From contig OZ220741.1 in NCBI GenBank assembly GCA_965116885.1, forward strand, positions 5,472,001 to 5,536,000: a stretch of DNA of 64,000 nt, written 5' to 3'. The DNA comes from Candidatus Latescibacterota bacterium. GTDB taxonomy: Bacteria > Latescibacterota > UBA2968. The notes beneath the pieces are model-generated. The model saw only the letters and a program-made list of their open reading frames with translations, did not search any database and was not told the origin of the DNA. Positions 4,681 to 47,423 of this stretch are shown piece after piece (within the stretch, counting starts at the first letter, position 1; every line of letters begins with the position of its first letter). The translations under genes were made by a program, and so were the position numbers.

Positions 4681-6302
4681 GCTTGTTAGACGTTCAAAAT
4701 TTGGGCGTGCATTTTCAACTCGAAGACCAGGTCGTCGAAGCTGTACGCGGCGTATCGTTTCACATTGAAAAAGGTGAAACCGTCGCACTCGTAGGCGAAT
4801 CGGGATCGGGCAAATCCGTCTCGGCACTTTCCGTAATGCAATTGCTGCCCTATCCGCGCGCCTCGCATCCACACGGCAGCGTACAATTTGACGGAGAGGA
4901 AATGCTGGGCGCGTCGCAAGACCGACTGCAACAACTGCGCGGCGACCGCATTGCGATGATTTTTCAGGAGCCGATGACCTCACTGAATCCGCTGCATACA
5001 ATTGAGAAACAGATCGGCGAAACCCTGATGTTGCACCGCAAAATGACGCGAGAGCAAGCGCGTGAACACACGATAGACTTATTGCAAAAAGTACACTTGC
5101 CCGATCCCGAAACGCGCCTCAAATCCTATCCCCACCAGCTATCGGGTGGTCAGCGACAACGCGTAATGATCGCCATGGCCCTGGCCAATGAGCCGGATTT
5201 GCTCATTGCCGATGAGCCTACAACTGCGCTGGATGTGACCATCCAGGCACAAATTTTGAAATTGCTCAAAGACCTGCAAGATGAATTTGGCATGGCAATT
5301 TTGCTCATCACGCACGACCTGACAATCGTGCGGCATGTAGCGGATCGCGTTTATGTAATGACCCAGGGAAAAATTGTAGAAGAAGGAGACACCGCGCGCA
5401 TCTTCGATCAGCCGCAACACATCTATACACAAAAACTTCTAAATGCACAGCCAAAGGGGACGGCATCCGCGCTGAATGGATCGGCACCCATTGTGGTCGA
5501 GGCGGATAATCTGAAAGTGTGGTTCCCCATTCAGCGGGGATTGTTGCGGCGAACCATCGGGCATATAAAAGCCGTAGATGGCATTTCAGTAACCATTCGC
5601 GCCGGACATACCGTCGGCGTTGTCGGCGAATCCGGATCGGGCAAAACAACATTGGGATTGGCCCTGTTGCGATTGCTGAGCAGTCAGGGACCGATTGAGT
5701 TTAATGGACAGGGCATTCAGAACCTGCCGGGCAAAGTACTCCGCCCCTTGAGGCGAGAGATGCAAATTGTTTTTCAAGACCCCTTCGGGTCCTTAAGCCC
5801 CCGCCTATCGGTCTTTCACATTATCGCCGAGGGGTTGCGGGTTCACAACATGGGAGACAGCGATCACAAACGCCGAGACCTCGTAGCAGAAATAATGGAT
5901 GAAGTCGGGCTTGAACCCGAAATGATGGACCGGTTTCCACACGAGTTCTCTGGCGGCCAACGGCAGCGCATTGCCATCGCACGCGCCATGGTATTGCGCC
6001 CCCAATTTGTGGTCCTGGACGAACCCACAAGTGCGCTGGACATGACCGTACAGTCCCAAATCATCGACTTGCTCCGGCGCTTGCAAAAAGACCACGATCT
6101 GGCTTATTTATTCATCAGCCACGACCTGCGGGTCGTGCGCGCACTCGCCAATGAACTCGTCGTAATGAAGGACGGCGTCGTTGTAGAACACGGCGCCACA
6201 GAAACCGTATTTGCAAATCCACAAACAGATTATACGCGGGAATTGATTACAGCGGCATTTGATATTGATGTTGTTGAAAGAGACACAGATGGAGGCGGAT
6301 GA
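4677..6302 (+). CDS. yejF: peptide ABC transporter ATP-binding protein with two ATPase domains
   Basis: Two Walker A motifs ([16 protein letters not shown]), two SGGQRQR signatures and DEPT motifs; operon order yejABEF. Confidence 0.92.
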
Positions 6303-6363
6303 TAGGCTTTAGAAAGGTAATAGCGCAACCATCCCCGTCTCTCAAAAACTATCGAACATCTAT

Positions 6364-8196
6364 TTAGCCGCCAAAATAATCGATAACAATTTCGGCCATC
6401 TTTTTCGAAGCCTCATTGTTCTGAATATCTACGACTGATATAGCGTGTTTTCTTCCAAGAGCATCCACTCTATCCCTATTATTTTCTACAACGAGCAAAA
6501 TCGTAGCAGATTGACCCATTATACGCAGTGCCTCTATCGCATCTTGAATATAGGCATCCGAATCACAGGCATTGACAATTAAGATAGAGGCATCCGGTTT
6601 CAGCCCCATCAAGAGACCAATGGATTGAAAAAGCGAAAGGTGGGGGCTATAAATATCATCAGGAATTATTGTTGATCGGGCCGAAAACAAAACGAGATCA
6701 GGCCGCTTTGTGCGGTATAGTTCGTGTAAATTGTAGCTGAGATATGATGTATAGTGCTGCTCAGACATCTCGAGTTTATCTGCCGAATCAATTGGAAATA
6801 CGAAATCCAAATTGAAGAGGTCTGCATATCTCTCTGTTCCAATCTGACTCACTTTATATCCTATTTGAGTAAGCTCTTTGAACAACTTGATCTGAATGCG
6901 AAATGTATCACAATGTGCCTGTGTGCCAAAAATACCTATGACTGGCACATCCACAGCTTGAAAATAAAAATAGCCGTTGGCAACATCCTCTATGTTCAAT
7001 TGAGGATTGAATATCTTTAACCCCTTTTTATTTGCTATCGCAAAGAGATCGTGATTGTATTTGGGTGGCAAACAACTGAAAATGTTGACATTATTTGCTA
7101 AAGTACGATACATAACTTCAGTCAATACATCTCGCCGGACAACGCGACTCAACGGACTCATATCGCCTATGATGAGCGTGTCGGCATTTTTCAGCACATC
7201 CCGAAGACACGCGCTTAGTTCAGAATCTAAGAGGACCGCTCGACCACTGCCATCATATCTAAACAGTCTCTCTTCCAGTGGATCGACAACACGATGTATA
7301 TCGAACTCGAGTAAATCCTCAAAACGCTCTATATTTTTCAGCTCTTTGTGAATCGCAAACAGGGTTGCTCGCCTAATACAAGGATATTGTTGAATCTCTT
7401 TTCTTTTTTTTTGTGATATTGGTTTTTCAGTAATTGGTAATACGACATCATTTTGAATTGATTCTACAGGTTCCGGAAGGGATTGCAGCGATAGAATTTC
7501 CCTTGTCGCATTTAGAGAGGCGCAAGGGTAAATTTGCCGAATCAAACAGACGATCCCTGCAATACGAGATGCGGCAAAACTCGATCCTGCCGTAATGACT
7601 TTAGACGAATTTTTCCAACACAAAATCTGTTCGCCGCCATGCGCGACACATTCAATGTGATTATTTTTTCGGAAATAATAATCATTGAGCTTTTGCAGCG
7701 GCTTTCCCTGCACGCCAATGACATCTGGGAAAATAGCTGGATAACTTTCGATTCCTCTGTTGTGAGCTGCTGCAACGAGAATGATATCTTCTTGGGCAGC
7801 TTGCCGACACAATTCTTGGATAGGCTCAAAATACTGACGATCCGTTGTGCCCAAACTCAAATTGACAACATCTATCCCGCGATCTATGACCCACTGCAAA
7901 GCTGCTATTAACAATTTGCCATCCGCAACCAAAGATTGTTCGAAAATGCGGATAATATAGATTTCAGCATCAGGCGCGATTTGGCGAATGATTCCCGTGC
8001 AAGCAGTGCCATGGCCTGATCGATCCGCATAATCAGTTCCCCAAATAATCTGTCCATCGGAATCTATTTTGATATCCATACCCTGAGTAATAGATCCGAT
8101 TTCGGGATGTTCATAATCGACCCCACTATCGATGATTGCTATTTTGACGTCCTGCCCCGTCAATCTGCCAAAATCCAGCTTATCCGTGTCCTCCAT
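6364..8196 (-). CDS. S8 (subtilisin-like) serine peptidase fused to a DUF1611/TIGR04066-like peptide-maturation domain
   Basis: Catalytic triad motifs IIDSG, HGTAC and GSSFA; C-half VPVIGIFGT....F..Q..L...L...GYKVSQIGTE; no signal peptide. Confidence 0.8.
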   Translation of the reverse strand: MEDTDKLDFGRLTGQDVKIAIIDSGVDYEHPEIGSITQGMDIKIDSDGQIIWGTDYADRSGHGTACTGIIRQIAPDAEIYIIRIFEQSLVADGKLLIAALQWVIDRGIDVVNLSLGTTDRQYFEPIQELCRQAAQEDIILVAAAHNRGIESYPAIFPDVIGVQGKPLQKLNDYYFRKNNHIECVAHGGEQILCWKNSSKVITAGSSFAASRIAGIVCLIRQIYPCASLNATREILSLQSLPEPVESIQNDVVLPITEKPISQKKRKEIQQYPCIRRATLFAIHKELKNIERFEDLLEFDIHRVVDPLEERLFRYDGSGRAVLLDSELSACLRDVLKNADTLIIGDMSPLSRVVRRDVLTEVMYRTLANNVNIFSCLPPKYNHDLFAIANKKGLKIFNPQLNIEDVANGYFYFQAVDVPVIGIFGTQAHCDTFRIQIKLFKELTQIGYKVSQIGTERYADLFNLDFVFPIDSADKLEMSEQHYTSYLSYNLHELYRTKRPDLVLFSARSTIIPDDIYSPHLSLFQSIGLLMGLKPDASILIVNACDSDAYIQDAIEALRIMGQSATILLVVENNRDRVDALGRKHAISVVDIQNNEASKKMAEIVIDYFGG

Positions 8197-8214
8197 TAAA
8201 ACCTCATCGGTTGA

Positions 8215-9918
8215 TCATCCATAAAGCTGACTATACACTTTACCATGATGTATAAGTTCATCATGAGTGCCTTGTTCCGCCACCCGATGATCTTCAATGA
8301 CCAGGATATGATCCGCATGTCTGATTGTTGAAAGTCTATGAGAAATAATAATCGTTGTTTTCTCTTTCCTGATCTCTTGTAAAGCTTGTAGAATTTTTGT
8401 TTCAGATTCCGTATCCAGGGCTGAAGTCGCTTCATCCAGAATCAGAATGGGTGTATTGCGAAGAATGGCTCTGGCGATCACGATCCTCTGTTTCTGTCCC
8501 TGTGACAACTGCGCGCCTCGTTCTCCCACCTGGGTCTCATACCCTTCTGAAAATTCTTGGATGAAATCATGGGCATGTGCCAACCTTGCTGCCTTCTCTA
8601 CTTGCCACGTTTCCACTCTTTTATTTCCCACGGATATATTTTCAAATACCGAGCCGTAAAACAAAAATGGATCCTGCTGCACAAGCCCAATTTGTCCTCT
8701 CAGAGATGAGAGCCTCATCTGTCTTATATCATATCCATCAATAGTAATAGCACCTGCCTGAGGATCGTAAAATCTCGGGATCAATTGGACGAATGTCGTT
8801 TTGCCATTGCCACTTTTTCCCACAATAGCTGTAGTCTTTCCTCTCTCAATCTCGACAGTGACATCGCTGATAACGGATTGTGATTCTCTATATGAAAAAG
8901 ACACATTGCGAAATTCAATGTGTCCTTCAAGTGGAGGGCCTTCGGGTAATTCTGGAGTCTCTTTTATCTCTGGAACAATGTGGTGAACCTCGAGAAAGCG
9001 ATCAATGTGGACAATAACCGTGCGAAAGTCCATCAGGAGACTCAGCAAACCTTGCATTGGGCCGGAGAGGTAGCCTACATAAGCAGTAAACGCCAAATAG
9101 CTACCCAGACTCATATCACCAGAGAGAATCTGCGTCCAGCCATACCAGCCATACAAAAGCGTCCCACCAGCATGAAGGGCATTAATTAGAAAGCCCGATG
9201 CACCCTGCCAGCAATACATGTTCAGTCGTATCCTTGCTGCTCCTATGGTGGGGTTCTTGATTCGCGAAAACATATAATCTTCGATATTCAAAGCCTGGAT
9301 GGTTCTGATCCCCGAAATAAACTCGATCCTCTTTGCAGAGGCTTCGGCAGTTGTTTCAGCAATTTCTCTGGTTTTTTTAGCCGTATATTTCGACATGAAC
9401 CACGATATCACAGCATCAAATGGCAATACTGCCATACTCAGCAAAGCCAACTTCCAGTTCATGTAGAACAAGATAGGTGGAAACAAGAGCAGCGTCCCCA
9501 CGCTCATAAACGTTGTGCCAATGATACCCATAATTCCAGCTACTGATGATAGGGCATCTCGTGATCTCGATATAATCTCACCGGCTTCTCTCTGATCGAA
9601 AAAACTGAAATTGAGGTATCCGATATGATGATAAAATCCCAGCCCCGTTTTGAGACTTAATCTCATGTTGAGATTATCAGAAAAATATTCATTTAGTGAA
9701 GATATCAGATTGGAAAAAATAGAAATAAAGGCTGTGGAGACGAGAACGACATAAAGTAAGTTTGCGTCTTTGGTGTGATAGACATTATCGATGAGAACTT
9801 TTGTAAAGTAGGGTGGGAGAAGAGAGAAGAAAATCAGAAAGGCACTGACAAACAATGTCTGTATGATCATCTTTCGATGTCCACGCAGCAATAATAAGAT
9901 ATGGGCAAGCTTCTGCAA
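8215..9918 (-). CDS. ABC exporter (TMD+NBD), bacteriocin/T1SS type, without an N-terminal C39 domain
   Basis: Multi-TM N-half, Walker A GKSGNGKT, LSQGQKQR signature, ILDEATSALD. Confidence 0.9.
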   Translation of the reverse strand: MQKLAHILLLLRGHRKMIIQTLFVSAFLIFFSLLPPYFTKVLIDNVYHTKDANLLYVVLVSTAFISIFSNLISSLNEYFSDNLNMRLSLKTGLGFYHHIGYLNFSFFDQREAGEIISRSRDALSSVAGIMGIIGTTFMSVGTLLLFPPILFYMNWKLALLSMAVLPFDAVISWFMSKYTAKKTREIAETTAEASAKRIEFISGIRTIQALNIEDYMFSRIKNPTIGAARIRLNMYCWQGASGFLINALHAGGTLLYGWYGWTQILSGDMSLGSYLAFTAYVGYLSGPMQGLLSLLMDFRTVIVHIDRFLEVHHIVPEIKETPELPEGPPLEGHIEFRNVSFSYRESQSVISDVTVEIERGKTTAIVGKSGNGKTTFVQLIPRFYDPQAGAITIDGYDIRQMRLSSLRGQIGLVQQDPFLFYGSVFENISVGNKRVETWQVEKAARLAHAHDFIQEFSEGYETQVGERGAQLSQGQKQRIVIARAILRNTPILILDEATSALDTESETKILQALQEIRKEKTTIIISHRLSTIRHADHILVIEDHRVAEQGTHDELIHHGKVYSQLYG

Positions 9919-9965
9919 GAAAACCTCCTAACACTGCCAAAAATCCCATCCTAACCTGAAAAAGG

Positions 9966-10322
9966 TCATTTGATTTTTTCATCCTTCGTATCAGTTTCAG
10001 TCTTAGTCTCAAGGGTATCCATGTATCTATGAGCCATATCCCATACCAGGTATGTCAGCATCTCTTCCCAAATTTCACCCACTTCCTCCTTCTGGATTTC
10101 ACTCTGAATTTCACTCTGGGTAATAACCAAATTGTGAACAAGCGTGGTATCTGTATAGGTTGTATCTCGACCATCGTTTGTAATTTTACCCCGCATTACA
10201 GTACCACTGACTCTGACAGAATCTACATGATGTGCTATAGTCATATTCTCAAGCCTTACCACTATGATACCCGATGAATCATGATCATCGCAACTACCAA
10301 GCAGAACTAAACCAGCGATCAT
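9966..10322 (-). CDS. small putative lipoprotein, paralogue of the 107-aa leader-bearing protein; ancestral start probably the AGG at 10349
   Basis: Lipobox LGSC; DSVRVSGTVMRG..DTTY aligns with DTIKVTGTVKQG..DTTW of 12587-12910; GAGGAG lies 7 nt upstream of the in-frame AGG. Confidence 0.65.
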   Translation of the reverse strand: MIAGLVLLGSCDDHDSSGIIVVRLENMTIAHHVDSVRVSGTVMRGKITNDGRDTTYTDTTLVHNLVITQSEIQSEIQKEEVGEIWEEMLTYLVWDMAHRYMDTLETKTETDTKDEKIK

Positions 10323-10362
10323 ATATAGAATAGATATTCGTTTCCGCCTGCTTAATCTCCTC

Positions 10363-12426
10363 TCAATTCGCGTGGGTAATAGAGTCTGTAACCGTATTGG
10401 ATTTTATGATTAGAAAGCTAAAGTTAGCTTCTCCACGCTCCAAATTCTTCACCAACTCTACATCGACAGCAGTTCCCGGTTTATCCATAGCCTGAAGCAA
10501 GTCATTACTCGCCTGTTGTCTTGGATCATCTTGGGGCAAGAGAGCCAAAATTTGATGCAGAGATTCTTTTGTTACTTCAGGCTGTTTATACAAGATGCCT
10601 AAACCTGTGTGTTTTTTAAGGGCTTGAAATTTTTCCTCTAATGTGGATGATAGTTCTATAAGCTCTTGATTTGCTTCAATGGCTTTTCCATAGTTTTCTA
10701 AAAAAATATAGCTCACCAAGAGCCCGGTATTGATTTGCTTTTGATCGCGACAGTAAGTTGTTCGGTTACAGTGTTCTTTTTGCTTTTCCAACTCAATCAT
10801 TGCATTGGCATAATCTCGAAGTTTAAGATAGTGCGAGGCCAATTCTTTACGCAGTGCATGAGCATTTGGATAAAGTTCCAATCCCTTTTTGAATATAGAA
10901 GCTGCTTTTGCGTTTTCATTGCGGATGCGATAAAATATCCCTGCTTGTAACAAGGTGGCACCATTTGTGGGGCCCATTGCGAGGGCTGTTGAAAGATATT
11001 GATCTGCTTGTGCATTTTTTACCGGATCATTTTCATTTGCATAAAGTTTGGCGAGCAAGGCATAAGTGCCTGGCAAGGGCGGCTGATTCGATACTGCTGC
11101 CTCAAGTTCCCTGAAAGCATCTTCTTTATTTCCCTCGTCGTATAGAAATCCACCTCTGTCAGTTTGTAGACAATTTTGTGCATAAATATTTGTTTCGAAG
11201 TTATGAGGCAAATCAACACCTATAGGAAAGATGAATAGCGAAGATTGGTCATAAAAATTCCAGGCATGTTGAAAATCGACAGTGGGAATTTCTCGGTTAT
11301 AAATCCAGTGAAGTACATCATAAGAAATGATAATGTCTTTAATTTCGTCATACCCCACAACCAATGTGAAATGCCCATAACCGTATTCGGGTTCAAGAAT
11401 GAGTACAAGAACTGGGTAGCCTCGATTGACCCAATATTTAATTTTAGGAAGGTCTGCTACGCCCAAATAGGCTTGAAATCCTCTTTCAACAGCAAAATTC
11501 CACAGGGCATAAGGAGTAGTGCCAGCATCATCTCCTATTTTCTTTGCGATCGATTTCTGGGAGACCGAATCGTTGAGAAAATTTAATACCATTTTGAGGG
11601 TTGCAGAACCGCACGCACCCAGTGTCTGCACGATGTAGCCCCGAGGGGGAAAGGGAACACCATCGATGATTTTTCTTTTTGCATCATCAGGCACATTATT
11701 TAGCGATTTTATGTAGTGTTGCGCTTGTTGATAAGTGGCTTGATTATGTTCCAACTCAATCATAGAATAATTCTCAATGGCTTTGCCATGTTTTCCCATT
11801 GCATAATACACATCACCGATCTTGAGCCTTGCTTTAGCCAACAGTTCAGGCGTTTTTTCCGTTTTGATAATCCGATTAAACGCATCTATCGCCTGCTCAT
11901 ATCGCTGCAATCTCATAAGACATATCGCAAGTACCCGTAGAATGAAGGTATCTTCTCCTTTCAGACGCAGTGTTTCTTTTAAATATTGAATTGCCTTCTC
12001 ATATCGGCCTTGTCCTGCCAAAAGTAAGCCAAGATGTCCATTTACTTCCACATCCTCCGGTGAGAGCGCGAGCAGACTTTCGTAACAGCTAATCGCATCT
12101 TCATATCGCTCCAATCTTTTATACGCATAGATCAGTTGATGGTATGTAGTCTGATTATTAGGATTAGTTCTTAATATAGCCTTTCCATATGCAACGGACT
12201 GATCATAGTCTTCCATCCCAATAAAGGCGGCTTGCAGAAGCCCCAATACATCAATATCTTCTGGATTATTTTTTAAAACTTCTTGGAATAATTCAATAGC
12301 CTGTGGATAATTTTCTTGCTCATATAATTCGAAGCCTCTTTCTATTTTGCTATCCAGCTTATTTGAACAAGCAGAAAGCAGAATCAAACCTGCGATAATG
12401 CATAGAATAGATACTCGTTTCCACAT
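10363..12426 (-). CDS. lipoprotein with N- and C-terminal TPR arrays flanking a C39-like cysteine peptidase domain
   Basis: MWKRVSILCIIAGLILLSAC lipoprotein signal (start 12426 or 12438, not 12504); TPR repeats; QTLGACGSATLKMVL (Cys), GHFTLVVGYD (His), SYD (Asp). Confidence 0.8.
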   Translation of the reverse strand: MWKRVSILCIIAGLILLSACSNKLDSKIERGFELYEQENYPQAIELFQEVLKNNPEDIDVLGLLQAAFIGMEDYDQSVAYGKAILRTNPNNQTTYHQLIYAYKRLERYEDAISCYESLLALSPEDVEVNGHLGLLLAGQGRYEKAIQYLKETLRLKGEDTFILRVLAICLMRLQRYEQAIDAFNRIIKTEKTPELLAKARLKIGDVYYAMGKHGKAIENYSMIELEHNQATYQQAQHYIKSLNNVPDDAKRKIIDGVPFPPRGYIVQTLGACGSATLKMVLNFLNDSVSQKSIAKKIGDDAGTTPYALWNFAVERGFQAYLGVADLPKIKYWVNRGYPVLVLILEPEYGYGHFTLVVGYDEIKDIIISYDVLHWIYNREIPTVDFQHAWNFYDQSSLFIFPIGVDLPHNFETNIYAQNCLQTDRGGFLYDEGNKEDAFRELEAAVSNQPPLPGTYALLAKLYANENDPVKNAQADQYLSTALAMGPTNGATLLQAGIFYRIRNENAKAASIFKKGLELYPNAHALRKELASHYLKLRDYANAMIELEKQKEHCNRTTYCRDQKQINTGLLVSYIFLENYGKAIEANQELIELSSTLEEKFQALKKHTGLGILYKQPEVTKESLHQILALLPQDDPRQQASNDLLQAMDKPGTAVDVELVKNLERGEANFSFLIIKSNTVTDSITHAN

Positions 12427-12586
12427 GCGTAAAACCATCACTTGTAACTCCAAATGTATATCTGAAAAATCGGGGCCTATATTTGAGGTAGGGTAGGTAA
12501 TCAAATTAATATAGACCCCGATAATGAATTTTAAGCCACAAGAAAAAGCGAAAAGACAGCATTAATGGAATGAGGTCAAGGCCGAT

Positions 12587-12910
12587 TTAAGTGTCATCAA
12601 TCTGATCCATTACCCAATCCCAGATTCGACCAACTATACCTTTTGTACCGAATGGTGCTTCTTTCTTCACATCCTCCTTGGTCGCGGTAATTTCAATCTT
12701 TTTTGGCTCTGACCAAGTTGTATCTCCCGGTGCCTCAACTCTACCTTGCTTGACCGTTCCCGTAACCTTAATGGTATCACCAGGAGTTTTAACGAAGGTA
12801 GTAGGCTCAGTCGTCTGATAAACTATGGTTTTTTCATCATCCCCATAAGCTTCAACACATCCCAATTCCAGATGATAAGATCTCTGCACGCGTTTCACAA
12901 GCGTTTTCAT
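12587..12910 (-). CDS. putative exported precursor with a CLI_3235-like leader (MKTLVKR...VEAY)
   Basis: Strong RBS AAGGAGG; basic N-terminus ending in VEAY; Thr-rich core; lies between hlyD and the peptidase/exporter genes. Confidence 0.65.
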   Translation of the reverse strand: MKTLVKRVQRSYHLELGCVEAYGDDEKTIVYQTTEPTTFVKTPGDTIKVTGTVKQGRVEAPGDTTWSEPKKIEITATKEDVKKEAPFGTKGIVGRIWDWVMDQIDDT

Positions 12911-13078
12911 ACATCCCTCCTTGAAAGAGTGAAAACACGCTCTTTCCGTTTACATCGGTTTAGAAAGAGAGTATTCAAAAATTGACGGTCTTTCCTCTTC
13001 TCCTTGTGGTTATTTCAATTCCCAAAGGCGATGCGGAAGGCAACAGAAAAGTACTCCCAGAATTTCCTCCTTTCTTTT

Positions 13079-14287
13079 TTAATTCGCCTTTTTGGGATCG
13101 AAAATATAGAAATCATGTTCGGGAATTTTTCCCGCTGTGCGAAGAAACCTGTTCCATATCAGATCGAGAATTCTTCCCTTTTCCACGGCTATCTTCGCTT
13201 CAACGCTCATGCCGTAAGCAAGTGAATAGGTATTGCTATTTACAGAAATTTCGGGGTTCTGAATCGTTATTTTTATAGGATAAACTTTTGTCTCTTGATA
13301 GGGATTATCCGATACAGACTGTGCAGCAATTTCTGCGACTGTACCCTCAAAAATTTTGTATTCCATGTGAGGAAAGGCATTCACGAAAAGATTCACGGGT
13401 TGTCCGACTTGCACTTTGTGAATCTCTGTTTCTTTGATCATCACTTTTGCCTGCCAATCACCCAGGCGTGCAAGTTCCATTACAGCCTCTCCCATCTGGA
13501 GGTGGTCGCCAACGCGTCGTTCTAAATCGCCAGTTAAAACCGTGCCAGATACAGGCGCATAAACCACGGTGTTTTCTATTCGACGCAGCAAGACACGTTG
13601 GTCTTCTCTCAGTTTTTGGTTCATTTTTTTTAGCGTCTCAATTTCTCGGTGCCTGCGGTCAACCGTTTTCAATCTTTCCTGGTCTGTTTGTAATTTGACC
13701 TGCGCCTGTTTTAAAATGGATCTTTTTAGTCTTATGGGTAGCAACTGATCAATTCCTGATTTACTATTCACGAGATTGTATTTTTCAACGAGTTGATACT
13801 CCCGTTCTACTTGATCCAGTTGCAAACGCAAGGTCTCTATCTCGGACTGTGTTTGACGAATCTCACTTTGTAGAATTTTTTTTTCTGATCTCATCTGTTC
13901 TTCTATCTCTGCCATCCTGCTTCTGTTAATTTCTTGCTCTTTGCCGACTTTCTCCAATTCGGCTTCCCACTCCCTGCTTTCCAACTTAAAAAGAAGGCCT
14001 CCTTTTGCCACCTTGTCCCATCTATCGACATAGACTTCATGTATTATTCCCGAAAGCTTTGTCTTCACTTCAAAGCGACCTGAAGGTTCAACAACACCTG
14101 TCCCTTCCACATTTACATTCATTCCAATATTCCACACCAAAAAGAGGATACCTGCAATCAAAGTGATAACGGATAGCAAGATGAACAGGAGAAATCGTTT
14201 GACAAATCCAAAGCCTATTCCCTTAAAATCGTCTATAATGTCTATTGGGACTTTTGTCTGGTCGTTTTGAATAGCGGGGGACTTCAT
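13079..14287 (-). CDS. HlyD-family secretion adaptor (membrane fusion protein)
   Basis: Single N-terminal TM, lipoyl-like halves (SGIIHEVYV, YAPVSGTV), long coiled coil, GMSVEAKI. Confidence 0.9.
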   Translation of the reverse strand: MKSPAIQNDQTKVPIDIIDDFKGIGFGFVKRFLLFILLSVITLIAGILFLVWNIGMNVNVEGTGVVEPSGRFEVKTKLSGIIHEVYVDRWDKVAKGGLLFKLESREWEAELEKVGKEQEINRSRMAEIEEQMRSEKKILQSEIRQTQSEIETLRLQLDQVEREYQLVEKYNLVNSKSGIDQLLPIRLKRSILKQAQVKLQTDQERLKTVDRRHREIETLKKMNQKLREDQRVLLRRIENTVVYAPVSGTVLTGDLERRVGDHLQMGEAVMELARLGDWQAKVMIKETEIHKVQVGQPVNLFVNAFPHMEYKIFEGTVAEIAAQSVSDNPYQETKVYPIKITIQNPEISVNSNTYSLAYGMSVEAKIAVEKGRILDLIWNRFLRTAGKIPEHDFYIFDPKKAN

Positions 14288-14330
14288 TCTCTTGTCAGTG
14301 GCAAATTTTACACCGCTCCAAACGTTGCCT

Positions 14331-15608
14331 CTATAGGCTCGACAACAATTGCTCTGTACGCTCGGCTCCGTTTAGCAAAATGTTGTGTTTCATCCGGGGG
14401 CTTTCCAAACGCTCTAAAATTGCGTTTGCCATTCGCTCTAATGTCAGTTCTTCAGAGCGTATCATATCCGCTATACCTAATTCGGAAAGTTTCTCTGCTC
14501 GAGGTGCTTGATCAAGGTCTGTCTTTGCTGGAATCGGTACCAAAATAGCTTTTACACCTGTCTCAAGGACATTCATACACGTATTATAGCCCGCCTGACT
14601 GATAGACAATTCTGCGCCCTGCATCCACTGAAGAAAGTCGTTCGTGAACTTCGACAGATAGAAGAAATCTTCTGTACACATTTCTTCTATCGCATCATAC
14701 TCAGCGTCCTTCATAAAAACCCCAGCAAAGATCACCATCTTCATGTTTTGAACATAACCATTCTCGCAAAGTATCTTCCAGGCAGTTACCGCTGTTGTAA
14801 TCATGTCCCAACCGAGGATACCGCCACCAACACTGACCAAAACATAAGGTCCCTGTTTCTCTATCGTTTTTTGGGTATCGGAATCAAGGCTTTTCAATTT
14901 TTCAGAAACATATCCTGTATATTCAATTGGAATCTCGATATTCTCTATCCAGGGAAAAAATGATTCCAATTGAAAAAGTCTCGGATCACCGTGAATGAGG
15001 ACGTAATCAAAATATCGATTCAACACAGGAACAACGCGTTCGTAATACAATCGTGACAACCTTTTGTTTTTTTGGTCCTTACGCAAAAAAGAAACTGCAT
15101 ACCAAATCATCCTGGGTATGAAAAACAAAGTTTCCGGATGTGGCGGTTTCTTTGTAGAAAGCTCTTTTTCAGGAGTCTTTCTTATTATTTCACGTACGGA
15201 ACAGATCACCTTCACTTTTGGATTTACACTCTTTGCCTTTTGAATCGCAGGGATCAACTCTTTGTACAGTATAGATCTGGCAAATGGAAAAAGTTCAATC
15301 ACGAAAATATCTGGCTGTATCTGTGCAATTTTTTCGAGCAAAATTTGCCTGCGCTTCTCCTGAGCCTTCCGCAGACTGAATTTTGGGTCTTCACACACTA
15401 TGCGCTGAGACTCTAAATCCTTAAAGAGAGCTGGCAAACGAATGGTCGTAACTGACGGTATATCAATACGATGAATTTCGCGTCCCCCATCTACAAAATA
15501 GACTTTATAGCTTTTTGCCAATGCGCGAACGATCTGAAAATTTCTAAAATGATGACCAACACCTAACAAGTGTTGACTGAAGAAAACAATGCGTTTTTTG
15601 GATAACAT
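14331..15608 (-). CDS. glycosyltransferase, GT-B fold (COG4671 / GT28 C-terminal-like)
   Basis: QHLLGVGH, IELFPF, VSVGGG, SQAGYNT and DQ..RA motifs. Confidence 0.85.
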   Translation of the reverse strand: MLSKKRIVFFSQHLLGVGHHFRNFQIVRALAKSYKVYFVDGGREIHRIDIPSVTTIRLPALFKDLESQRIVCEDPKFSLRKAQEKRRQILLEKIAQIQPDIFVIELFPFARSILYKELIPAIQKAKSVNPKVKVICSVREIIRKTPEKELSTKKPPHPETLFFIPRMIWYAVSFLRKDQKNKRLSRLYYERVVPVLNRYFDYVLIHGDPRLFQLESFFPWIENIEIPIEYTGYVSEKLKSLDSDTQKTIEKQGPYVLVSVGGGILGWDMITTAVTAWKILCENGYVQNMKMVIFAGVFMKDAEYDAIEEMCTEDFFYLSKFTNDFLQWMQGAELSISQAGYNTCMNVLETGVKAILVPIPAKTDLDQAPRAEKLSELGIADMIRSEELTLERMANAILERLESPRMKHNILLNGAERTEQLLSSL

Positions 15609-15641
15609 TTATCAGAATCCTCTGAGACCCATGATTTTGAT

Positions 15642-16085
15642 CTAAGAGCCACGTTCAGCCTCTAAATCTACACGGGATGAATTTTTTTGAATAAGGCTTT
15701 CGCATCTCACTTTTGCGCGGTAAGCAGTAAGAGACATGTCATTTACCTTCATAAACACCTCACAAAAATACTTTGAGGAATGAAATCCACACATGCCTGC
15801 AACCTCATAGGTCAACAGGGATTGTTCGCTTATTAAGTGCTTTGCATGGGCAATTCTGATCTCTCTCAATTTTTCTCGGAAAGGCTTGCCAACATGCTTT
15901 TTGAACAAGGCACTCAGATGCGTTCTGGAAAGTTTGAAATGATCTACGAGATCACTAAATTTGAGGTCCGGGTTGCTGTAATGCGCCTCCAAAAAGGCTT
16001 CAAACGCAATTTTCCAACTCGAATCTGATGGGATATAGGTTTTGACCTTCGCCAAAAACTTGCTCCTTTCAACTACACTATTCAA
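15642..16085 (-). CDS. AraC-family regulator, HTH domain only
   Basis: HLSALFKKHVG...RIAHAK.L....EVAGMCGF.SSKYFCEVF double HTH; no sensor domain. Confidence 0.8.
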   Translation of the reverse strand: MNSVVERSKFLAKVKTYIPSDSSWKIAFEAFLEAHYSNPDLKFSDLVDHFKLSRTHLSALFKKHVGKPFREKLREIRIAHAKHLISEQSLLTYEVAGMCGFHSSKYFCEVFMKVNDMSLTAYRAKVRCESLIQKNSSRVDLEAERGS

Positions 16086-17530: not shown

Positions 17531-18820
17531 ATGCAAAGCAAAGTCGCTGTCCTCCGCACATCGCCGCATACGGTCTTTGAAGACTACCATCGCCTGCTCA
17601 ATCTGGCGGATTACCAGAATATAATTGCCAAAGAGGTAGAAACCGCACTCAAGATCAACATTTCCTGGCACTTTTTTTTCCCCGGATGTTCCACAACGCC
17701 ATGGCAACTCGACGGTGTTATCCGCGCCATGAAACGAGATGGCTACGATCCCGACCTCATTCATGGCTGCCACAACCGAACCGTAGTCATCGACGCGCGC
17801 TTGGGCGAAAAAGAAAACAAACACCTCCCCGTCATCGAAGCACACGGCTTGAAAAATATACATCTCTACGAAGGCGAAGAATGGATCAACGTACGCGATG
17901 CCGTAGGCGACCTCACCGAAAAATTTCTCTGCCTGAACGAAGTCTATCCCAAAGGCTTTCACATTCCCAAACGCTTTATCGATGAAAACATCATTCATTT
18001 CCCCACAGTAAAAACCCACGTCTTTACCACCACCACAGGCGCCATGAAAAATGCCTTTGGCGGCCTGCTCAACGAGCGTCGTCACTGGACCCACCCGGTC
18101 ATTCACGAAACCCTCGTCGATCTGCTCATGATACAAAAGAAAATCCACCGCGGTGTCTTCGCAGTCATGGACGGCACCTTTGCAGGCGATGGACCCGGTC
18201 CGCGCTGTATGATCCCCCACACAAAAAACGTCATCCTCGCCAGTGCCGACCAGGTCGCCATTGACGCAGTCGCCGCCAAAATGATGGGCTTTGATCCACT
18301 TTCAATCAAATACATCCGCATAGCACACGACCTGGGCCTCGGATGCGGAGATCCCTCCCAAATCGAAATTGCGGGTGATCTATCCGCTGCAGAAGAAAAT
18401 TGGGACTTTGTCGGCCCGTACAAAAAAATGACCTTTGCCTCTAAAATGCAGCACAAGATCTACTGGGGAGGCCTCAAAAAACCCATCGAATGGTCGCTCA
18501 AAACCATTCTCGCACCCTGGGCTTATATGGCTTCGGTACTCTACCACGACAGTTTCTGGTATCCTTTTCATGCCAAAAATAAAATGCAAGATGTACTAAA
18601 CAGCGACTGGGGCCGCCTCTTCCGCAACTGGGAACACCTCACCCCCAACGCGCAAGGCTTCCCCGATGTGGGCGACGCCTCTGCCAAACTACAAAAAACG
18701 AATCTGCAAGCCTTATGGGATTCGCTCGGCATCTTGCGCGATTGCATTGTCGAAGCCCCCGAATTCATCCAGTCGCGCAAAAGAGAAAACACCCTGCATG
18801 CCCATGACCGAAAACATTAA
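17531..18820 (+). CDS. DUF362 domain protein
   Basis: LKINISWH, PTVKTHVFTTTTGAMKNAFGGL, DQVAIDA. Confidence 0.85.
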   Translation: MQSKVAVLRTSPHTVFEDYHRLLNLADYQNIIAKEVETALKINISWHFFFPGCSTTPWQLDGVIRAMKRDGYDPDLIHGCHNRTVVIDARLGEKENKHLPVIEAHGLKNIHLYEGEEWINVRDAVGDLTEKFLCLNEVYPKGFHIPKRFIDENIIHFPTVKTHVFTTTTGAMKNAFGGLLNERRHWTHPVIHETLVDLLMIQKKIHRGVFAVMDGTFAGDGPGPRCMIPHTKNVILASADQVAIDAVAAKMMGFDPLSIKYIRIAHDLGLGCGDPSQIEIAGDLSAAEENWDFVGPYKKMTFASKMQHKIYWGGLKKPIEWSLKTILAPWAYMASVLYHDSFWYPFHAKNKMQDVLNSDWGRLFRNWEHLTPNAQGFPDVGDASAKLQKTNLQALWDSLGILRDCIVEAPEFIQSRKRENTLHAHDRKH

Positions 18821-19790
18821 CCACCTGTTCCGCGACAAATTGCCAGAACAGCGCATTGCAAAAATCGAACCGCTCTCCGAAACCCGGGCGCACGCAGTCT
18901 GGAAAGTCACGACTGACCGCTCGGTATTTGCTGTAAAACACCACCTCTTTGCATCGCTCACCCGCGGCAAACCATACCACTTACTCTCCGTTGAACAAAA
19001 AGTCACAAACCATCTCCTCGCCAATGGTGTCTCTGTCCCCCGCATAATCGCAACCGACCACGACATGGTCATCTACGAATGGTGCGGCAATCACACCCTC
19101 GACGACATCTGCCAGACCACTGACCCCAGACCATTCGCACCCACTGTCATCAACACCCTTTGCGCCCTTGAAAAAGCGTTTTACAAACGCAGCGCCAAAT
19201 TCATCCCGCACATTGCGCCCGGATGTAGCGCAGATGACCTGCGAGAACAGTGGCATAGCACCACCCAATCACTCACAGAAACGCTTCCATCACTCGTACG
19301 CGATCCAAATGCCCCAGATCTGCTATCGACCTGGGAAACCCTCGTAAATGAACTCATCCACGCACCGCCAGCACTCGGTCCCACCGACTACAACGCCCGC
19401 AACATCGCGTGTCCAAATCCAGAAACGGCAACCGTTCTCGAACTCGCCAAAATTGGCTATGACTGGCCCGAACGCCGCCTGATACAATACACGACATCGC
19501 TCGGCGCGCACAAGCCCCACGGCCGCATCATTGGCCTTCTCACACCAGCACTTGCGCGGCACTACGCCCATTTTGCATCAAAATTGTATTCGACTCCAAC
19601 CGAAACCATCCTCCTGCGTCTCGATGCACACCACCTCATCTATCACCTGTTCGCAGCCCATATATGCCTGACAACGCCACACTGGCAAAATATCAAAACC
19701 CGCATCGCACAACACCAAAGCCAGATATCCCAGCCCTTATCCGAACATCCCCTGACAAACAAATTCCGCACGTATTTTGAAAAAAAATAA
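18798..19790 (+). CDS. aminoglycoside/choline phosphotransferase-like kinase-fold protein
   Basis: FAVKH, VPRII, GPTDYNARNI catalytic-loop-like motif. Confidence 0.6.
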   Translation: MPMTENINHLFRDKLPEQRIAKIEPLSETRAHAVWKVTTDRSVFAVKHHLFASLTRGKPYHLLSVEQKVTNHLLANGVSVPRIIATDHDMVIYEWCGNHTLDDICQTTDPRPFAPTVINTLCALEKAFYKRSAKFIPHIAPGCSADDLREQWHSTTQSLTETLPSLVRDPNAPDLLSTWETLVNELIHAPPALGPTDYNARNIACPNPETATVLELAKIGYDWPERRLIQYTTSLGAHKPHGRIIGLLTPALARHYAHFASKLYSTPTETILLRLDAHHLIYHLFAAHICLTTPHWQNIKTRIAQHQSQISQPLSEHPLTNKFRTYFEKK

Positions 19791-19818
19791 AGGCGATCCC
19801 ATTTCCTGGATCGCCTTT
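19789..19818. terminator. intrinsic (probably bidirectional) terminator
   Basis: AAAGGCGATCC / GGATCGCCTTT 11-bp inverted repeat between convergent genes. Confidence 0.7.
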
Positions 19819-19844
19819 CCTATCCATCACACAATGCCCTGCCC

Positions 19845-22800
19845 CTACGCGATATTTACCACCCGCTCAAAAATCGCCCGCGTCTGTGCCATATCATTCT
19901 TCAAAACATCTTCAAACACCTCAGCCGTATCAAACCCCATAGCCCGGGCTACTGCTGTCAACGCGCGGTCTTCGGTGGGCAAATGGGTGCGTGCCTGCTC
20001 ATCCTGGCGCCTGATCACTTTTTCTACAGTACGCAAAAAAACAAATGCTTGCTGAAGCCGTTGTGCATCTTCTGCCTCTAAAAACCCGCCTTCTACCAAT
20101 CTTCTCAGCGCCTCAAGCGTATTGGCACTGCGCAACTCCGGATGATCTTTGGCGAACTTCAACTGCAAAATTTGTGCAACAAACTCAATATCTACAATCC
20201 CCCCCGCATCTGTTTTGATACTCAACACCTTACGAGATCTTTGCCCATCCTTGCGCTCCATCTTCTTGCGAATATCCAACATTGTAGCTACCTCTTCATC
20301 CGAAAACCCGCTACCCACGACAAAAGGCTCAAACAAATTCAGCAACTTTTCTCCCAGAGCCGCATCGCCAGCGACGACCCGGCTGCGAGACAATGCCATG
20401 CGCTCCCACGTTGACGCGCGCGTCTCCAAATAGCGACTATAAGATTCCAGAGACAGTGCCAAAAGCCCGCTTGCCCCCTCGGGACGCAACCTCGGATCCA
20501 CTGGATAGAGCTTTCCCTGTGGCGTATTCTGTTCCAGCATCGCGATCATCTGCTGCGCCAGATCGATGAAAAATTGCAAATTCCCCTGCGGCCTTGCGCC
20601 ATCTGTTTCGCCATCTTCACCATATACAAATACGATATCCAGATCCGAACCAAAACTCAATTCGCCCCCCCCCATCTTGCCCAGGCCCAGCACCACAAAC
20701 CCGACCTCCTCACCGCTGCGATTGCGCGGCACCCCGCGTTTTTCCACCAACCGCGCATAAACCACCTCATAAACCGCCTGCACAACCGCATCGACCAACA
20801 TCGTCAACGCCTCAAATGTTTCAAACGTATCGGTCAAGCCCACGAGATCGCGCGTACCAAAACGCAACAATTCCCGATTTTTTACAGCATTTATTCCCCC
20901 CACCAATTCGGGTGTATCGCCATACCGCTCAACCTGTGCGCGAAACTGTTCTCGCAAAGCATCCATACCCGGACTGAGATGCAGCACTTCTGCCTCTGGA
21001 TCCAGATACAAAACCTCTGGACGAACCAGCCAATCGAGCAATCCGGGGTTGCGCCTTATCACCTGCACCAGAAATTGGCTGCCAACACACAAGGACAGCA
21101 TCAGTTGGCGAAATCCCTGATTGGATGCCAAAATTCGGAAAAACATATCGCCTGCACCATAAGCAGACACCAGACTCTCCAGATTGCTCAACCCCTGATC
21201 CGGATCGGCGGACTCCTGAAGTGCTTGCATCAATGCCGGTGCCAGTTCTGTAAAGCTCTCACGCGCTCGTGTACCCCGAATCCGCGGCACATGTCCAAAA
21301 GCCAGATAAATGAGATTGCGATGCGCCTCGCCCGGACGATCAAACCCGATCTCTTCCAACAACCCGCTGGCCTCTGCATCGCCTATTTCCATATTTACCA
21401 GCGCGCCTATAGAACGACCCTCGCTTTCTCGCGCCTCCGCAAAGACCTGGGCATACACCTCCTGCACAGCCTTCAAATGGACATCCAGTATTTTGCGATA
21501 CGCCTCAGCAGATCCCATATCCATCGTGCGCGCCAATACACCCTGTTCATCCTCCCCTTCGGGCAGCGAATAATCACTGCGATTGTGCATCATCTGCAAT
21601 CGGTGTTCCAAACGCCTGAAAAATACATAAGCATCCCTGAGCTGATCGGCTTCCTTACCCGACAGCGCAGACACCCGTTGCAACTGCCGAATAGCCTCAA
21701 GCGTATTGTCCGATCGCGCATTCTCGTGTATGCGCCCCACCAGCAATTGCAAACACTGCACAATAAATTCGATATCCCGAATGCCACCCGATCGCAACTT
21801 CAAATGCGTTTCGCGCTGCCCCTTGCTTCCAATCTGATCTTCTATACGCGCCTTAATGCGGTTGATCTCCGTTGCCGGACTGGTGTCAAAATAGCGCGGA
21901 TAAACAAAGGGTTGTACCATCTTCAAAAATCGCTGCCCCAGAGCTTCAGATCCCGCACAACAACGAGCCTTGATCAGCATTTGCCGCTCCCACAACTCGC
22001 CCCGCCGCATATAGTAGCCCTCATATCCGGCAAGAGGCATCACGAGCGCGCCAGCCGCGCCATCGGGGCGCAGGCGCATATCCATACGATACAAAAACCC
22101 CTCTGGCGTCACTTCTGTTGCCGCACGCACAATTTGCTCACACAATCGGGAGAAAAACTCCTGATTGGTCACAGAACGTTCACCATCCGTATTGCCCTCG
22201 GCACTATAGACAAACATCAAATCGATATCCGAACTAAAATTGAGCTCCATACCGCCCAACTTACCCAGCCCAAAAATCGCAAAATCCACGGGCTGTCCCT
22301 CGCCATTTCGCGGCATGCCATAACGCGCTTGCAGGTCGGGCAACAAAATATCAATCAGCTTTTGCAAACACACATCTGCCAAAACCGACAAATCAGCCGC
22401 AACATATTGAATAGCGCGCCCACCGGCCAGATCGCCCACGCCAATACGCAACAACTCGCGTCGCGAACTTCGCCGAATAGCATTGAGCTTGTCATCGCGC
22501 GTATCCACAGCCTCGACAGCCCCACCAAAAGACGCCAGCAATTGCTCTTTATCACACGATTGCTCGAAGTGATCGGAGGCATCTGACAACCAGTCAAAAA
22601 TATCGGGGTCGCGCACCAGCATATCAGCCATAAAAGGGCTACCGCCCAAAACGCACAACAACATGCGACACAACTCGGGATGCGCTTTGAGCGTGTGCAA
22701 AAACGATGCGCGATCAGCCTGCACAATGCGCAAAAAATTATTCAGCGCCATATCGGGGTCGGGCGCATCAATTAACGCCTGAAAAAAATCATCGGGAAGT

Positions 22801-22922: not shown

Positions 22923-22941
22923 GTTGGATATCCAATACGAC

Positions 22942-22998
22942 GGGCGAAAGATCTTTCGCCCCTACAATCATCTGCGTTCATCTGCGTCATCTGCGGAT
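22942..22998 (-). repeat. GTAG-type REP palindrome plus (TCATCTGCGT)n repeat
   Basis: GGGCGAAAGATCTTTCGCCCCTAC, followed by ATCTGCGTTCATCTGCGTCATCTGCGG. Confidence 0.7.
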
Positions 22999-23002
22999 CA
23001 CT

Positions 23003-23789
<787 letters not shown>

Positions 23790-23796
23790 GCGAACT

Positions 23797-24366
23797 ATGA
23801 CTATTCGGGCCATCATCTTCGACATGGACGGTACACTCACAGAATCTTATATCAACTGGCCAGATCTGCGTTCAAAAATCAATTGTCCGCCCGAAAAAAC
23901 CATCATCGAACACATCGACAACTTACCCACAAAACAACGCAAACAGGCCACTGATATCCTTCTCCAAAAAGAATGGGAAGCAGCACAGCACGCCGCCATT
24001 CGCGCTGGCGCAGCAGAACTCATTGACGCACTGCGAGCGCGCAAGTACAAACTCGGCCTGGTCACCAACAACCACGGCGGCGCCATGCACTGCGTAATCA
24101 ACCGACTCAATCGCGCCTTTGACATCGCCCTCAGCCGAGACGACGGTCCCATAAAACCCAGCCCCTACCTCATCCACAAAACGCTCCAGGCCCTCGACAC
24201 TTCCCCAAACGAAGCCATAAGCATCGGCGATAGCCGTTACGATCTCATGGCCTCTGCCGCCGCCCACGTGCGCTGTATTCACTTCACCGATGGCGCATCC
24301 GACCTCACGCACGATCTCCAGGTCGCGTCACTACCTGCGATCATACCGCTCCTGGACCGGCTTTAG
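23797..24366 (+). CDS. HAD-family hydrolase
   Basis: FDMDGTL, VTNN, KPSP, IGDSRYD motifs. Confidence 0.9.
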   Translation: MTIRAIIFDMDGTLTESYINWPDLRSKINCPPEKTIIEHIDNLPTKQRKQATDILLQKEWEAAQHAAIRAGAAELIDALRARKYKLGLVTNNHGGAMHCVINRLNRAFDIALSRDDGPIKPSPYLIHKTLQALDTSPNEAISIGDSRYDLMASAAAHVRCIHFTDGASDLTHDLQVASLPAIIPLLDRL

Positions 24367-47419: not shown

Positions 47420-47423
47420 CCGT

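Follow-up and report, generated by a model that had tools for sequence, protein, structure and literature searches.

A leader-bearing precursor and its lipoprotein paralogue in a putative export cluster of Candidatus Latescibacterota

Several described systems resemble the gene cluster analysed here. In the excerpt of PMC7876137 available to us, QhpE cleaves the leader of QhpC before QhpC is exported by the ATP-binding cassette (ABC) transporter QhpF. The available excerpt of PMC10731318 describes a sactipeptide locus of Paenibacillus polymyxa #23, which combines a TIGR04066 protein with a subtilisin-like protease and an ABC transporter. We analysed a stretch of 64,000 nucleotides from a Candidatus Latescibacterota bacterium (contig OZ220741.1, positions 5,472,001 to 5,536,000; hereafter the window). 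The list of open reading frames (ORFs), together with Pfam and NCBIfam domain assignment, revealed a run of eight genes on the minus strand (6364-16085 of the window). Two of them encode small proteins, a precursor of 107 residues with an N-terminal leader (12587..12910) and a small lipoprotein, represented by an ORF of 118 residues counted from its first ATG (9966..10322). Sequence comparison confirms that the two ORFs are paralogous and encode versions of a single domain of about 85 residues.

Like the QhpC/QhpE/QhpF set, the window cluster encodes together a small leader-bearing protein, a cytoplasmic subtilisin-like S8 protease and an ABC exporter. In contrast, it lacks the radical SAM enzyme QhpD (no radical SAM gene was found among the eight genes with Pfam and NCBIfam), QhpG and the dehydrogenase subunits, and the score of its S8 domain stays below the cutoff. 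This domain is fused to a TIGR04066-like domain, and the cluster adds an HlyD adaptor, a glycosyltransferase and a lipoprotein with tetratricopeptide repeats (TPR) and a C39-like domain. The precursor itself is unrelated to QhpC. The S8 fusion may work like QhpE, yet it is no member of the qhp system. With the TIGR04066 loci of Firmicutes, as far as the available excerpt describes them, the cluster has in common that a leader-bearing precursor is surrounded by a TIGR04066-family protein together with a subtilisin-like protease and an ABC transporter. However, the TIGR04066 match in the window is partial and below cutoff, and the cluster holds neither a radical SAM maturase nor an acyl carrier protein (ACP) gene, no ACP-like gene being found in the window. 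The precursor core, at about 84 residues, is far larger than a sactipeptide.

A leader, an ABC exporter, an HlyD adaptor and a C39-type peptidase domain, as in double-glycine systems with a peptidase-containing ABC transporter (PCAT), are all present in the cluster. In contrast to these systems, the leader ends in A-Y-(G/E/S), and the C39-like domain is carried by an extracytoplasmic lipoprotein. We rejected the precursor as a double-glycine PCAT substrate because position -2 is Y in 12/12 aligned relatives and the ABC exporter has no C39 domain. The classical type I secretion system (T1SS) of the HlyA type combines ABC, HlyD and TolC proteins, and its substrates carry an uncleaved C-terminal secretion signal, usually with repeats-in-toxin. 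The cluster has ABC and HlyD genes, and the C-terminus of the precursor is conserved; the precursor shows no repeats-in-toxin or other Pfam family at E <= 0.01, and no TolC gene was found in the cluster by the ORF list and the Pfam and NCBIfam scan of the eight genes.

Bacteriocin immunity lipoproteins of the LanI type, such as NisI and SpaI, are likewise small lipoproteins in clusters for exported peptides and occur as orphan copies in non-producers. Immunity proteins are not as a rule related to the product that they accompany, whereas the lipoprotein in the window is paralogous to the exported protein, and the copy in the producer has lost its start codon; no Pfam or NCBIfam match relates the two in sequence. 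CsgA/CsgB, FapC/FapB, the long and short chaplins and type V pili also pair two paralogues of a small beta-rich domain, one free and one tethered. In contrast, the window pair belongs to none of these families by sequence and has no imperfect repeats, and its tethered copy is dispensable in a related genome (G087).

Two paralogues in one gene cluster

Comparison of the two ORFs by BLASTP gave 28.5 bits (E 4e-6, 17/59 identities). Their Smith-Waterman score of 73 was reached by 0 of 5000 alignments when one of the two proteins was shuffled (mean 28.5, sd 5.1, max 60) and by 0 of 5000 when the other was (mean 30.0, max 60). At the profile level, hhalign of 5 precursors against 17 lipoproteins yielded 94.0% (E 1.4e-7, 53 columns), and with 12 precursors the values were 95.7%, E 8.8e-9 and 68 columns. 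When the 5.56-Mb genome was searched in six frames with the precursor profile, the 118-residue ORF was the only other match (E 7e-5, 16 candidates scored). Each small ORF is the other's sole cross-match in this genome, and the same cross-match appears in three related genomes (G074, G075 and G085). A more typical precursor (P0023) and a full-length lipoprotein (P0006) have 32/96 identities (E 3e-7).

That the similarity stems from chance or composition, with the ORFs unrelated, is hardly conceivable: identity is low (29%) and both proteins are rich in D, T and V, but none of the 10,000 composition-preserving shuffles reached the observed score, and the hhalign E value and the exclusive genome-wide cross-match argue in the same direction. 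The original prediction of a secreted precursor with a lipoprotein paralogue in the same cluster is borne out on this point. Both ORFs lie on the minus strand where it placed them, their translations contain the stretches that it quoted, and the similarity holds against shuffled controls and in the pairwise HHalign check.

The joint alignment of 28 sequences extends from just past the leader or the lipobox to a common D-T near the C-terminus. In the precursor, this D-T is terminal, and the ending D-D-T is conserved among relatives; the lipoprotein continues past it with a T/E/K-rich tail of 17 residues. The lipoprotein core aligns with 8/12 precursor cores at z 6.4-9.4. The mature lipoprotein is 25-33% identical to the precursors, being closest to the window type, P0023, P0027 and P0028 (z 8.7-9.4) and furthest from the G087-type precursor (z 0.4-3.6).

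Word-based and exhaustive profile searches together revealed about 25 clusters of precursor relatives, all of 90-130 residues and none with a name or a Pfam domain; the exhaustive search contributed 8 true relatives in 10 matches. Neither the precursor nor the lipoprotein matches a Pfam or NCBIfam family at E <= 0.01. We rejected two candidate relatives. P0024, a repeat protein of 2162 residues, gave 28 matching stretches with the leader region (E 6e-25), all owed to a repeated P-L-H-L-D-Q-G-C-S-N-T-Y-Y unit; the protein resembles a translation of repeat DNA, and the match was judged spurious. P0029 is a gene call that joins the end of HlyD to a precursor and represents no real fusion family.

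The leader of 22-23 residues occupies residues 1-23 in the window (12842..12910), as delimited by the alignment of 12 sequences, and is followed by the core (12590..12841), modelled at low confidence with AlphaFold2 (AF2). Conservation across the family is far higher in the first 22 residues than elsewhere, and M1, K6, R7, Y12, A21 and Y22 are invariant columns. The leader is non-hydrophobic, its top 9-residue Kyte-Doolittle mean being 0.82 versus 2.96 for the lipoprotein signal. A ribosome-binding site of the AGGAGG type lies 6-7 nt 5' of the precursor ATG. On the other hand, the original prediction described the leader as a T1SS type and put D-D right after the cleavage site of both proteins, and neither detail survives for the precursor. 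In the window the leader ends in V-E-A-Y-G; position -2 is Y and not G, A or S, the G at -1 is replaced by E or S or is absent in several relatives, and the ABC exporter has no C39 domain. The residues after the invariant A-Y vary, with G-D-D in the window's close relatives only and E-S-N followed by a P/A/T-rich linker, S-P or G-K in the others. The idea of one fold routed two ways therefore holds in so far as the mature regions are homologous and a conserved non-hydrophobic leader stands opposite a lipoprotein signal, whereas the leader type given for it was wrong.

The L-G-C of the leader might be read as a degenerate lipobox and the leader, accordingly, as a signal peptide in decay; we considered this reading and do not claim it. 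BLASTP places L-G-C one residue out of register with the L-A-S-C of the lipoprotein, MAFFT places it differently, and the Cys of the leader G-C is replaced by H or R in some relatives.

One RNA library (X19) yielded a contig that spans 12519-13000 with 23 differences, which indicates presence in that library and is no proof of transcription. The RNA-library contigs do not cover the small lipoprotein gene, and we conclude nothing from that. Between 9800 and 13400, promoter-like sites number 10, with 9.0 expected, and terminator-like sites 6, with 2.5 expected; none of them delimits a precursor transcript.

Start codon, signal and distribution of the small lipoprotein

The lipoprotein family comprises 17 protein clusters with 60-100% identity, in which many mature positions are invariant. 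The ORF in the window is N-terminally truncated relative to its homologues: 15/16 of them begin nine codons upstream of the window's ATG, and the 16th (P0009) is called longer. All 16 have an n-region of the M-R-K-R type, a hydrophobic run and a lipobox, for which the general pattern is [LVI][ASTVI][GAS]C. The lipobox reads L-G-S-C in the window (10290..10301) and L-A-S-C in most homologues, with Cys11 invariant in all 17 sequences, so the lipobox predicted for this second copy is upheld. The Cys is followed by acidic residues (D-D-H-D).

The DNA alignment revealed that the ancestral start codon (10347..10349) is AGG in the window and ATG in G074, G075 and G085, while the GAGGAG ribosome-binding site 7 nt upstream (10357-10362) is retained. 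At 10348, the AGG allele recurs in run X1, where the main contigs (depth about 58) carry it, and in a 17.1-kb contig of run X3 from a different study; the X1 or X3 run may itself be the source of the window genome. Since contigs of two studies agree, the loss of the start codon is no private assembly error. A minor X1 contig (depth 15.9) has ATG and diverges upstream of 10386, where its translation matches the arrangement in G085. Translation starting at the internal ATG (10322) would give a protein that has the hydrophobic run and the lipobox and lacks the basic n-region, and no Shine-Dalgarno motif is visible before this ATG. The window lipoprotein may or may not be made, depending on whether the internal ATG suffices. 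For copies whose start is intact, the ratio of nonsynonymous to synonymous substitution rates (dN/dS) is 0.35-0.44; it reaches 0.70 when the start-less window copy is compared with the orphan copy in G085, and counts are small in both comparisons.

In E. coli, an Asp at +2 means retention in the inner membrane. In the available excerpt of PMC5080379, an acidic run after the Cys is a signal for export of lipoproteins to the surface in Bacteroidetes. Both rules come from other phyla, and the lipoprotein may lie at the inner membrane or at the surface.

The DNA encoding the signal peptide (10299..10355) closely duplicates the beginning (12376-12433, 5' end) of the TPR/C39 lipoprotein gene, which precedes it in the cluster. 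In blastn, the two regions match with identities of 84.2% (57 nt), 86.2% (58 nt) and 87.2% (47 nt). Within as well as across genomes, the ribosome-binding region and the initial ~60 nt of the small lipoprotein gene are 84-87% identical to the TPR/C39 start; an alignment of five DNA sequences covers the same two signal regions, and tblastn gives 59% identity over 22 residues. The lipoprotein profile also matches the N-terminus of the TPR/C39 protein (E 1.2e-4), and the mature parts of the two lipoproteins are unrelated. Only 13 nt separate the TPR/C39 stop from the ancestral lipoprotein ATG. The small lipoprotein thus appears mosaic, its core being of the precursor type and its lipoprotein signal common with the neighbour gene. 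Among the precursors, P0042 has an acidic, T/K-rich C-terminal tail resembling that of the lipoprotein. A maximum-likelihood tree built from 20 cores groups all 9 lipoproteins in a single tight clade (support 100/99) on a long stem (length 2.59); the tree is unrooted, its backbone is unresolved, and it does not give the direction of change. The simplest reading would be a single event that joined a precursor-type core to a signal common with the neighbour gene, followed by rapid change. The locus would then be a clean natural case of a small domain rerouted from leader-dependent ABC export into the lipoprotein pathway by a swap of signal sequence.

The precursor profile was run against the 168 genomes of the phylum, and the lipoprotein profile against the family's 31 genomes. 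Both genes are present in the window genome (G000), G074 and G075, and the lipoprotein genes of the latter two are identical and therefore not independent. The expectation that homologous clusters keep both versions is met in part: 3/5 genomes do, two of these with the identical lipoprotein genes. Within the genus, the lipoprotein is patchy, in 4/21 genomes. In G087 (97% complete, one contig), the cluster is entire and its precursor divergent; here the TPR/C39 and ABC genes overlap with nothing between them, and the lipoprotein profile found no small lipoprotein anywhere in the genome. Conversely, G085 (98% complete, one contig) has an intact full-length lipoprotein gene with ribosome-binding site and ATG, no TPR/C39 gene beside it, and no precursor by the precursor profile search. 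This orphan is preceded by about 40 nt of the TPR/C39 3' end and adjoins the flank that in the window lies beyond the S8 gene, the ABC and S8 genes being missing. In run X1, a minor strain with the orphan arrangement (depth 16) accompanies the main strain (depth 58). The lipoprotein is accordingly accessory: it is absent from one complete cluster, orphaned in G085 and start-codon-less in the window.

The precursor and lipoprotein alignments found no relatives in metagenome contigs, and the count of co-occurrence covers five genomes. Meanwhile, we notice that a lipoprotein cluster (P0011) and a G087-type precursor cluster (P0022) have the same longest contig figure, 150,038 bases, and may share one contig. 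If their genes are adjacent, the lipoprotein is not restricted to window-type precursors.

Predicted maturation and possible roles of the pair

The S8/TIGR04066-like fusion protein (610 residues, 6364..8196) carries in residues 18-238 a domain that matches Peptidase_S8 (E 5e-22) and QhpE NF049966 (E 4.2e-40, 137.4 bits against a cutoff of 165). Residues 327-504 match TIGR04066 over profile positions 56-232 of 361 (E 1.7e-16, 60.2 bits against a cutoff of 200). Because of the QhpE precedent and the Paenibacillus locus, we infer that this cytoplasmic protein is the best candidate for the leader peptidase. The ABC exporter (567 residues, HlyB/MsbA-like, 8215..9918) consists of ABC_membrane and ABC_tran only; its alignment begins at position 137/694 of the HlyB model and 144/708 of the bacteriocin_ABC model, so it has no N-terminal C39 peptidase domain. 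The HlyD-family periplasmic adaptor (13079..14287) matches HlyD_D23 and HlyD_3 in Pfam and, under its cutoff, TIGR01843 (E 1.3e-28).

The TPR/C39 lipoprotein (713 residues, 10363..12504) probably starts at ATG 12426, where a signal peptide with the lipobox L-S-A-C begins. Its TPR blocks (E down to 9e-27) flank a C39-like domain on both sides. This domain matches PF13529 (E 1.1e-9, 39.4 bits, cutoff 24) and PF03412 (23.4 bits, cutoff 22), and it matches the PA2778-family model under its cutoff (59 bits against 150). The Cys in C-G-S-A-T-L and the His in G-H-F-T-L stand at what we take to be the positions of the C39 catalytic pair. The best solved relative of the region was the endoisopeptidase PeiR, which was not significant (E 0.77). 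Since the domain is on a protein with its own lipoprotein (Sec) signal, it is predicted to lie outside the cytoplasm.

A GT-B glycosyltransferase with a GT28 C-terminal domain (MurG/MGT-like, 14331..15608; PF04101 E 7e-14) is encoded in the cluster and also in those of G074 and G087. In the available excerpt of PMC8550257, the O-glycosylation sequon of Bacteroidota is D-(S/T)-(A/I/L/V/M/T). This motif occurs 2-5 times per mature domain (window 12590-12841 and 9969-10289; P0003 and P0022-P0028). The joint alignment has four columns that are invariant across both families, D45, V49 and D63-T64, of which D45 and D63-T64 fall inside such motifs. Motif counts exceed those of composition-preserving shuffles in most members, and for 8/15 tested at most 9/2000 shuffles reached the count, the sequences being related to one another. 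The window precursor itself has 2 motifs against 0.68 expected, which is not significant (267/2000 shuffles reach 2). Together with the cluster glycosyltransferase, the motifs suggest, as a lead only, that both paralogues are glycosylated.

AF2 was run with the joint 28-sequence alignment, and both models are of low confidence. The precursor model (mean pLDDT, the predicted local distance difference test, 55.2) has strands in residues 27-77 and helices at 78-84 and 92-105, and ends in D-D-T. The lipoprotein model (pLDDT 61.5, about 75 in residues 30-80) has strands of 14-16 residues in a three-stranded meander. In both models the strands come first and one or two C-terminal helices follow. The common domain is thus predicted to be a beta-meander followed by an amphipathic C-terminal helix. 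For the lipoprotein model, Foldseek found nothing in the PDB at E <= 0.001 (best, MS2 coat protein, E 0.26). Among 48,161 chains compared by VIA-align, actin capping protein scored highest (Z 6.0), followed by levivirus coat proteins (Z 4-5), where noise is Z 7-8. A lead from the protein atlas, 'Myosin N-terminal SH3-like' in cyanobacterial clusters, was rejected at a score of 0.77 against a threshold of 0.9. The modelled fold has no match above noise, which does not make it new.

Complex prediction with the two mature parts gave a score of 0.32, the best of 3 controls giving 0.00; at least 37% of contacts are common to the runs, with a partner pLDDT of at least 52. The mark for such scores is reached by 116/157 solved complexes and by 2/215 mismatched pairs; only 18/157 solved complexes, together with both passing mismatches, pass it at 0.60 or under. 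The prediction weakly favours binding between precursor and lipoprotein.

Taken together, we propose that the precursor would be recognised through its leader in the cytoplasm, where the QhpE-like S8/TIGR04066-like protease would trim the leader. The GT-B enzyme might glycosylate the precursor on motifs of the D-T-T type, and the ABC/HlyD pair would pump out the trimmed product, as QhpC is handled by QhpE and QhpF. The lipoprotein copy would pass through Sec and Lgt and become lipid-anchored. It would act as a membrane-tethered partner that binds its exported paralogue by like-with-like contacts, and the use of such a partner might be self-protection, a decoy, or retention of the exported protein at the surface. 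As a whole, this account of rerouted paralogues, leader-dependent export and a tethered partner is our best explanation, held tentatively at a little less than an even chance. For the lipoprotein taken separately, a role as membrane-tethered binding partner, in protection, decoy or capture, is possible and falls somewhat short of an even chance. If the pair binds, the lipoprotein would be an unusual accessory protein derived from the exported product itself.

Several points weigh against this proposal. The S8 and TIGR04066 matches lie under their curated cutoffs, and leader cleavage, export and glycosylation of the precursor are all inferred. The likeness of the signal DNA could come from gene conversion between neighbours instead of from the origin of the gene, and the unrooted tree leaves undecided whether the precursor or the lipoprotein form is ancestral. 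Both AF2 models have low confidence, and complex scores in this range mislead in the majority of cases, except where there was prior reason to expect the pairing. The dN/dS of 0.70 between the start-less and orphan copies is compatible with decay. The loss of the start codon in a producer genome argues against an indispensable immunity role, unless the internal ATG 10322 suffices. It also weakens an obligatory form of the toxin and decoy/immunity option in the original prediction, which had offered as its other option a polymer subunit with a lipid-anchored nucleator.

This nucleator option, in which the lipoprotein nucleates or anchors an exported subunit by strand complementation, with the logic of CsgA/CsgB, Fap, chaplins and type V pili, is unlikely. 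The homology that spans the whole mature domain, the long strands and three-stranded meander of the model, and to a weak degree the heterodimer score of 0.32 versus 0.00 speak in its favour. In addition, the acidic residues after the lipidated Cys resemble the Bacteroidetes surface export signal (PMC5080379, available excerpt), which would put the anchor on the cell surface if Latescibacterota use that signal. However, the absence of the lipoprotein from the complete, precursor-bearing G087 cluster, its presence alone in G085 without any subunit and its lost start codon in the window all weaken the option; curlin and fimbrial families are among those that neither protein matched, and there is no repeat architecture. 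Because the lipoprotein is dispensable in G087 and is kept by the non-producers G085 and the minor X1 strain, a part in biogenesis or as a required nucleator is unlikely.

It is similarly unlikely that the lipoprotein is a duplicate with no working partnership, whether it arose as a by-product when a hypervariable island recombined, and is now neutral or in decay, or is a protein with an unrelated function of its own. The start codon loss, on which two contig sets from different studies agree, fits such a duplicate, as do the remnant-like G085 arrangement with its attached TPR/C39 3' end, the dN/dS of 0.70 between window and G085 copies and the patchy occurrence in the genus. Against it, the frame is intact in 17 protein clusters with many invariant mature positions, dN/dS is 0.35-0.44 among intact-start copies, and the G085 orphan retains its ribosome-binding site, ATG and full length.

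We regard as rather more doubtful a combined scenario in which like binds like and the lipoprotein, assembled from a precursor-type core and the lipoprotein signal of a neighbour, serves as immunity by mimicry or as a cell-surface receptor for the strain's own exported protein, with the shared invariant motifs of the D-T-T type glycosylated by the cluster enzyme and the locus polymorphic among strains of an uncultured symbiont in the manner of kin discrimination or cheating. Sponge strains would then differ in the half that they keep, as a producer without a working anchor or as an anchor-only orphan.

A periplasmic decoy or regulator of the TPR/C39-like peptidase, with the lipoprotein as a tethered pseudo-substrate that competes with the precursor, is very unlikely. 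The gene directly follows the TPR/C39 gene and has its signal sequence in common, and the terminal D-T of the precursor is internal in the lipoprotein, ahead of the tail. However, nothing observed points to an action of the C39-like domain on the precursor or the lipoprotein, the G087 cluster does without the lipoprotein, and the G085 orphan has no adjacent TPR/C39 gene.

The strains supply natural 'knock-outs', in that the cluster occurs with no lipoprotein (G087), the lipoprotein with no cluster (G085) and the window copy with no start codon; together they frame a direct test of whether the lipoprotein protects, captures or does nothing. The parts of the cluster, a leader-bearing precursor, an S8 protease, an ABC/HlyD pair and a lipoprotein, are of known kinds, and the family itself is unnamed. 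What is unusual is an accessory lipoprotein paralogous to the exported product, a signal common with the neighbour gene, and natural strains with either half alone. Among the matches listed by literature searches on TIGR04066, on PA2778/PA2779 and on Latescibacterota with sponges or peptides made on ribosomes and modified after translation (RiPPs), nothing in the excerpts available concerns this family.

The cluster, its surroundings and related clusters

From its head, an AraC-type helix-turn-helix regulator (15642..16085; HTH_18 E 2.4e-16), the cluster runs through the GT28-like glycosyltransferase, HlyD, the precursor, the TPR/C39-like lipoprotein, the small lipoprotein and the ABC exporter to the S8/TIGR04066-like protease. 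The window genome is a single contig of 5.56 Mb. Close relatives of the locus carry the label Candidatus Latescibacterota metagenome-assembled genomes, and the public runs that contain this stretch are mostly sponge metagenomes by label. GC content is 41-43% at 6-16 kb (window 6001-16000) and 48-55% in the flanks. This low-GC block of about 10 kb, which holds the cluster, is consistent with an acquired island.

In G085, the region upstream of the orphan lipoprotein (L003 3387-7858) holds a different export cluster with an ABC protein of 1029 residues, HlyD and a UDP-GlcNAc 2-epimerase-like gene. As read from its translation, the ABC protein has a cyclic-nucleotide-binding-like start and a C39-like segment, in the manner of a PCAT with a cyclic nucleotide monophosphate-binding domain. 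The locus appears to be a hotspot for swapping export islands.

The S8/TIGR04066-like fusion family is present in 88/168 phylum genomes, with up to 7 matches per genome and 4 in the window genome. The other three of the window genome (contig C1, 1842315-1844081, 1765845-1767563 and 1939649-1941376; L033-L035) lie near AraC-type regulators and ABC exporters, and some have an HlyD or GT28-like gene. These S8-fusion clusters look like a recurrent, unstudied cluster type, which would make clusters for leader-dependent export, equipped with both an S8 protease and an ABC pump, widespread in Latescibacterota. In one of them (L034 6062-6445, plus strand), an ORF of 127 residues after the ABC gene has an N-terminus like the precursor leader; the leader-like part ends in A-Y-S-G and D-S-T motifs follow. 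ACP-like ORFs lie 3' of the S8 gene in the same cluster (L034 10743-11018, plus strand) and in the G087 cluster (L020 15751-16026, plus strand), which fits the TIGR04066/ACP theme of 'peptide maturation'.

Elsewhere in the window, long stretches at 18001-28000 and 46001-60000 show strong negative GC skew (-0.20 to -0.31). The strong-skew region includes a minus-strand ORF of 1025 residues at 19845-22922.

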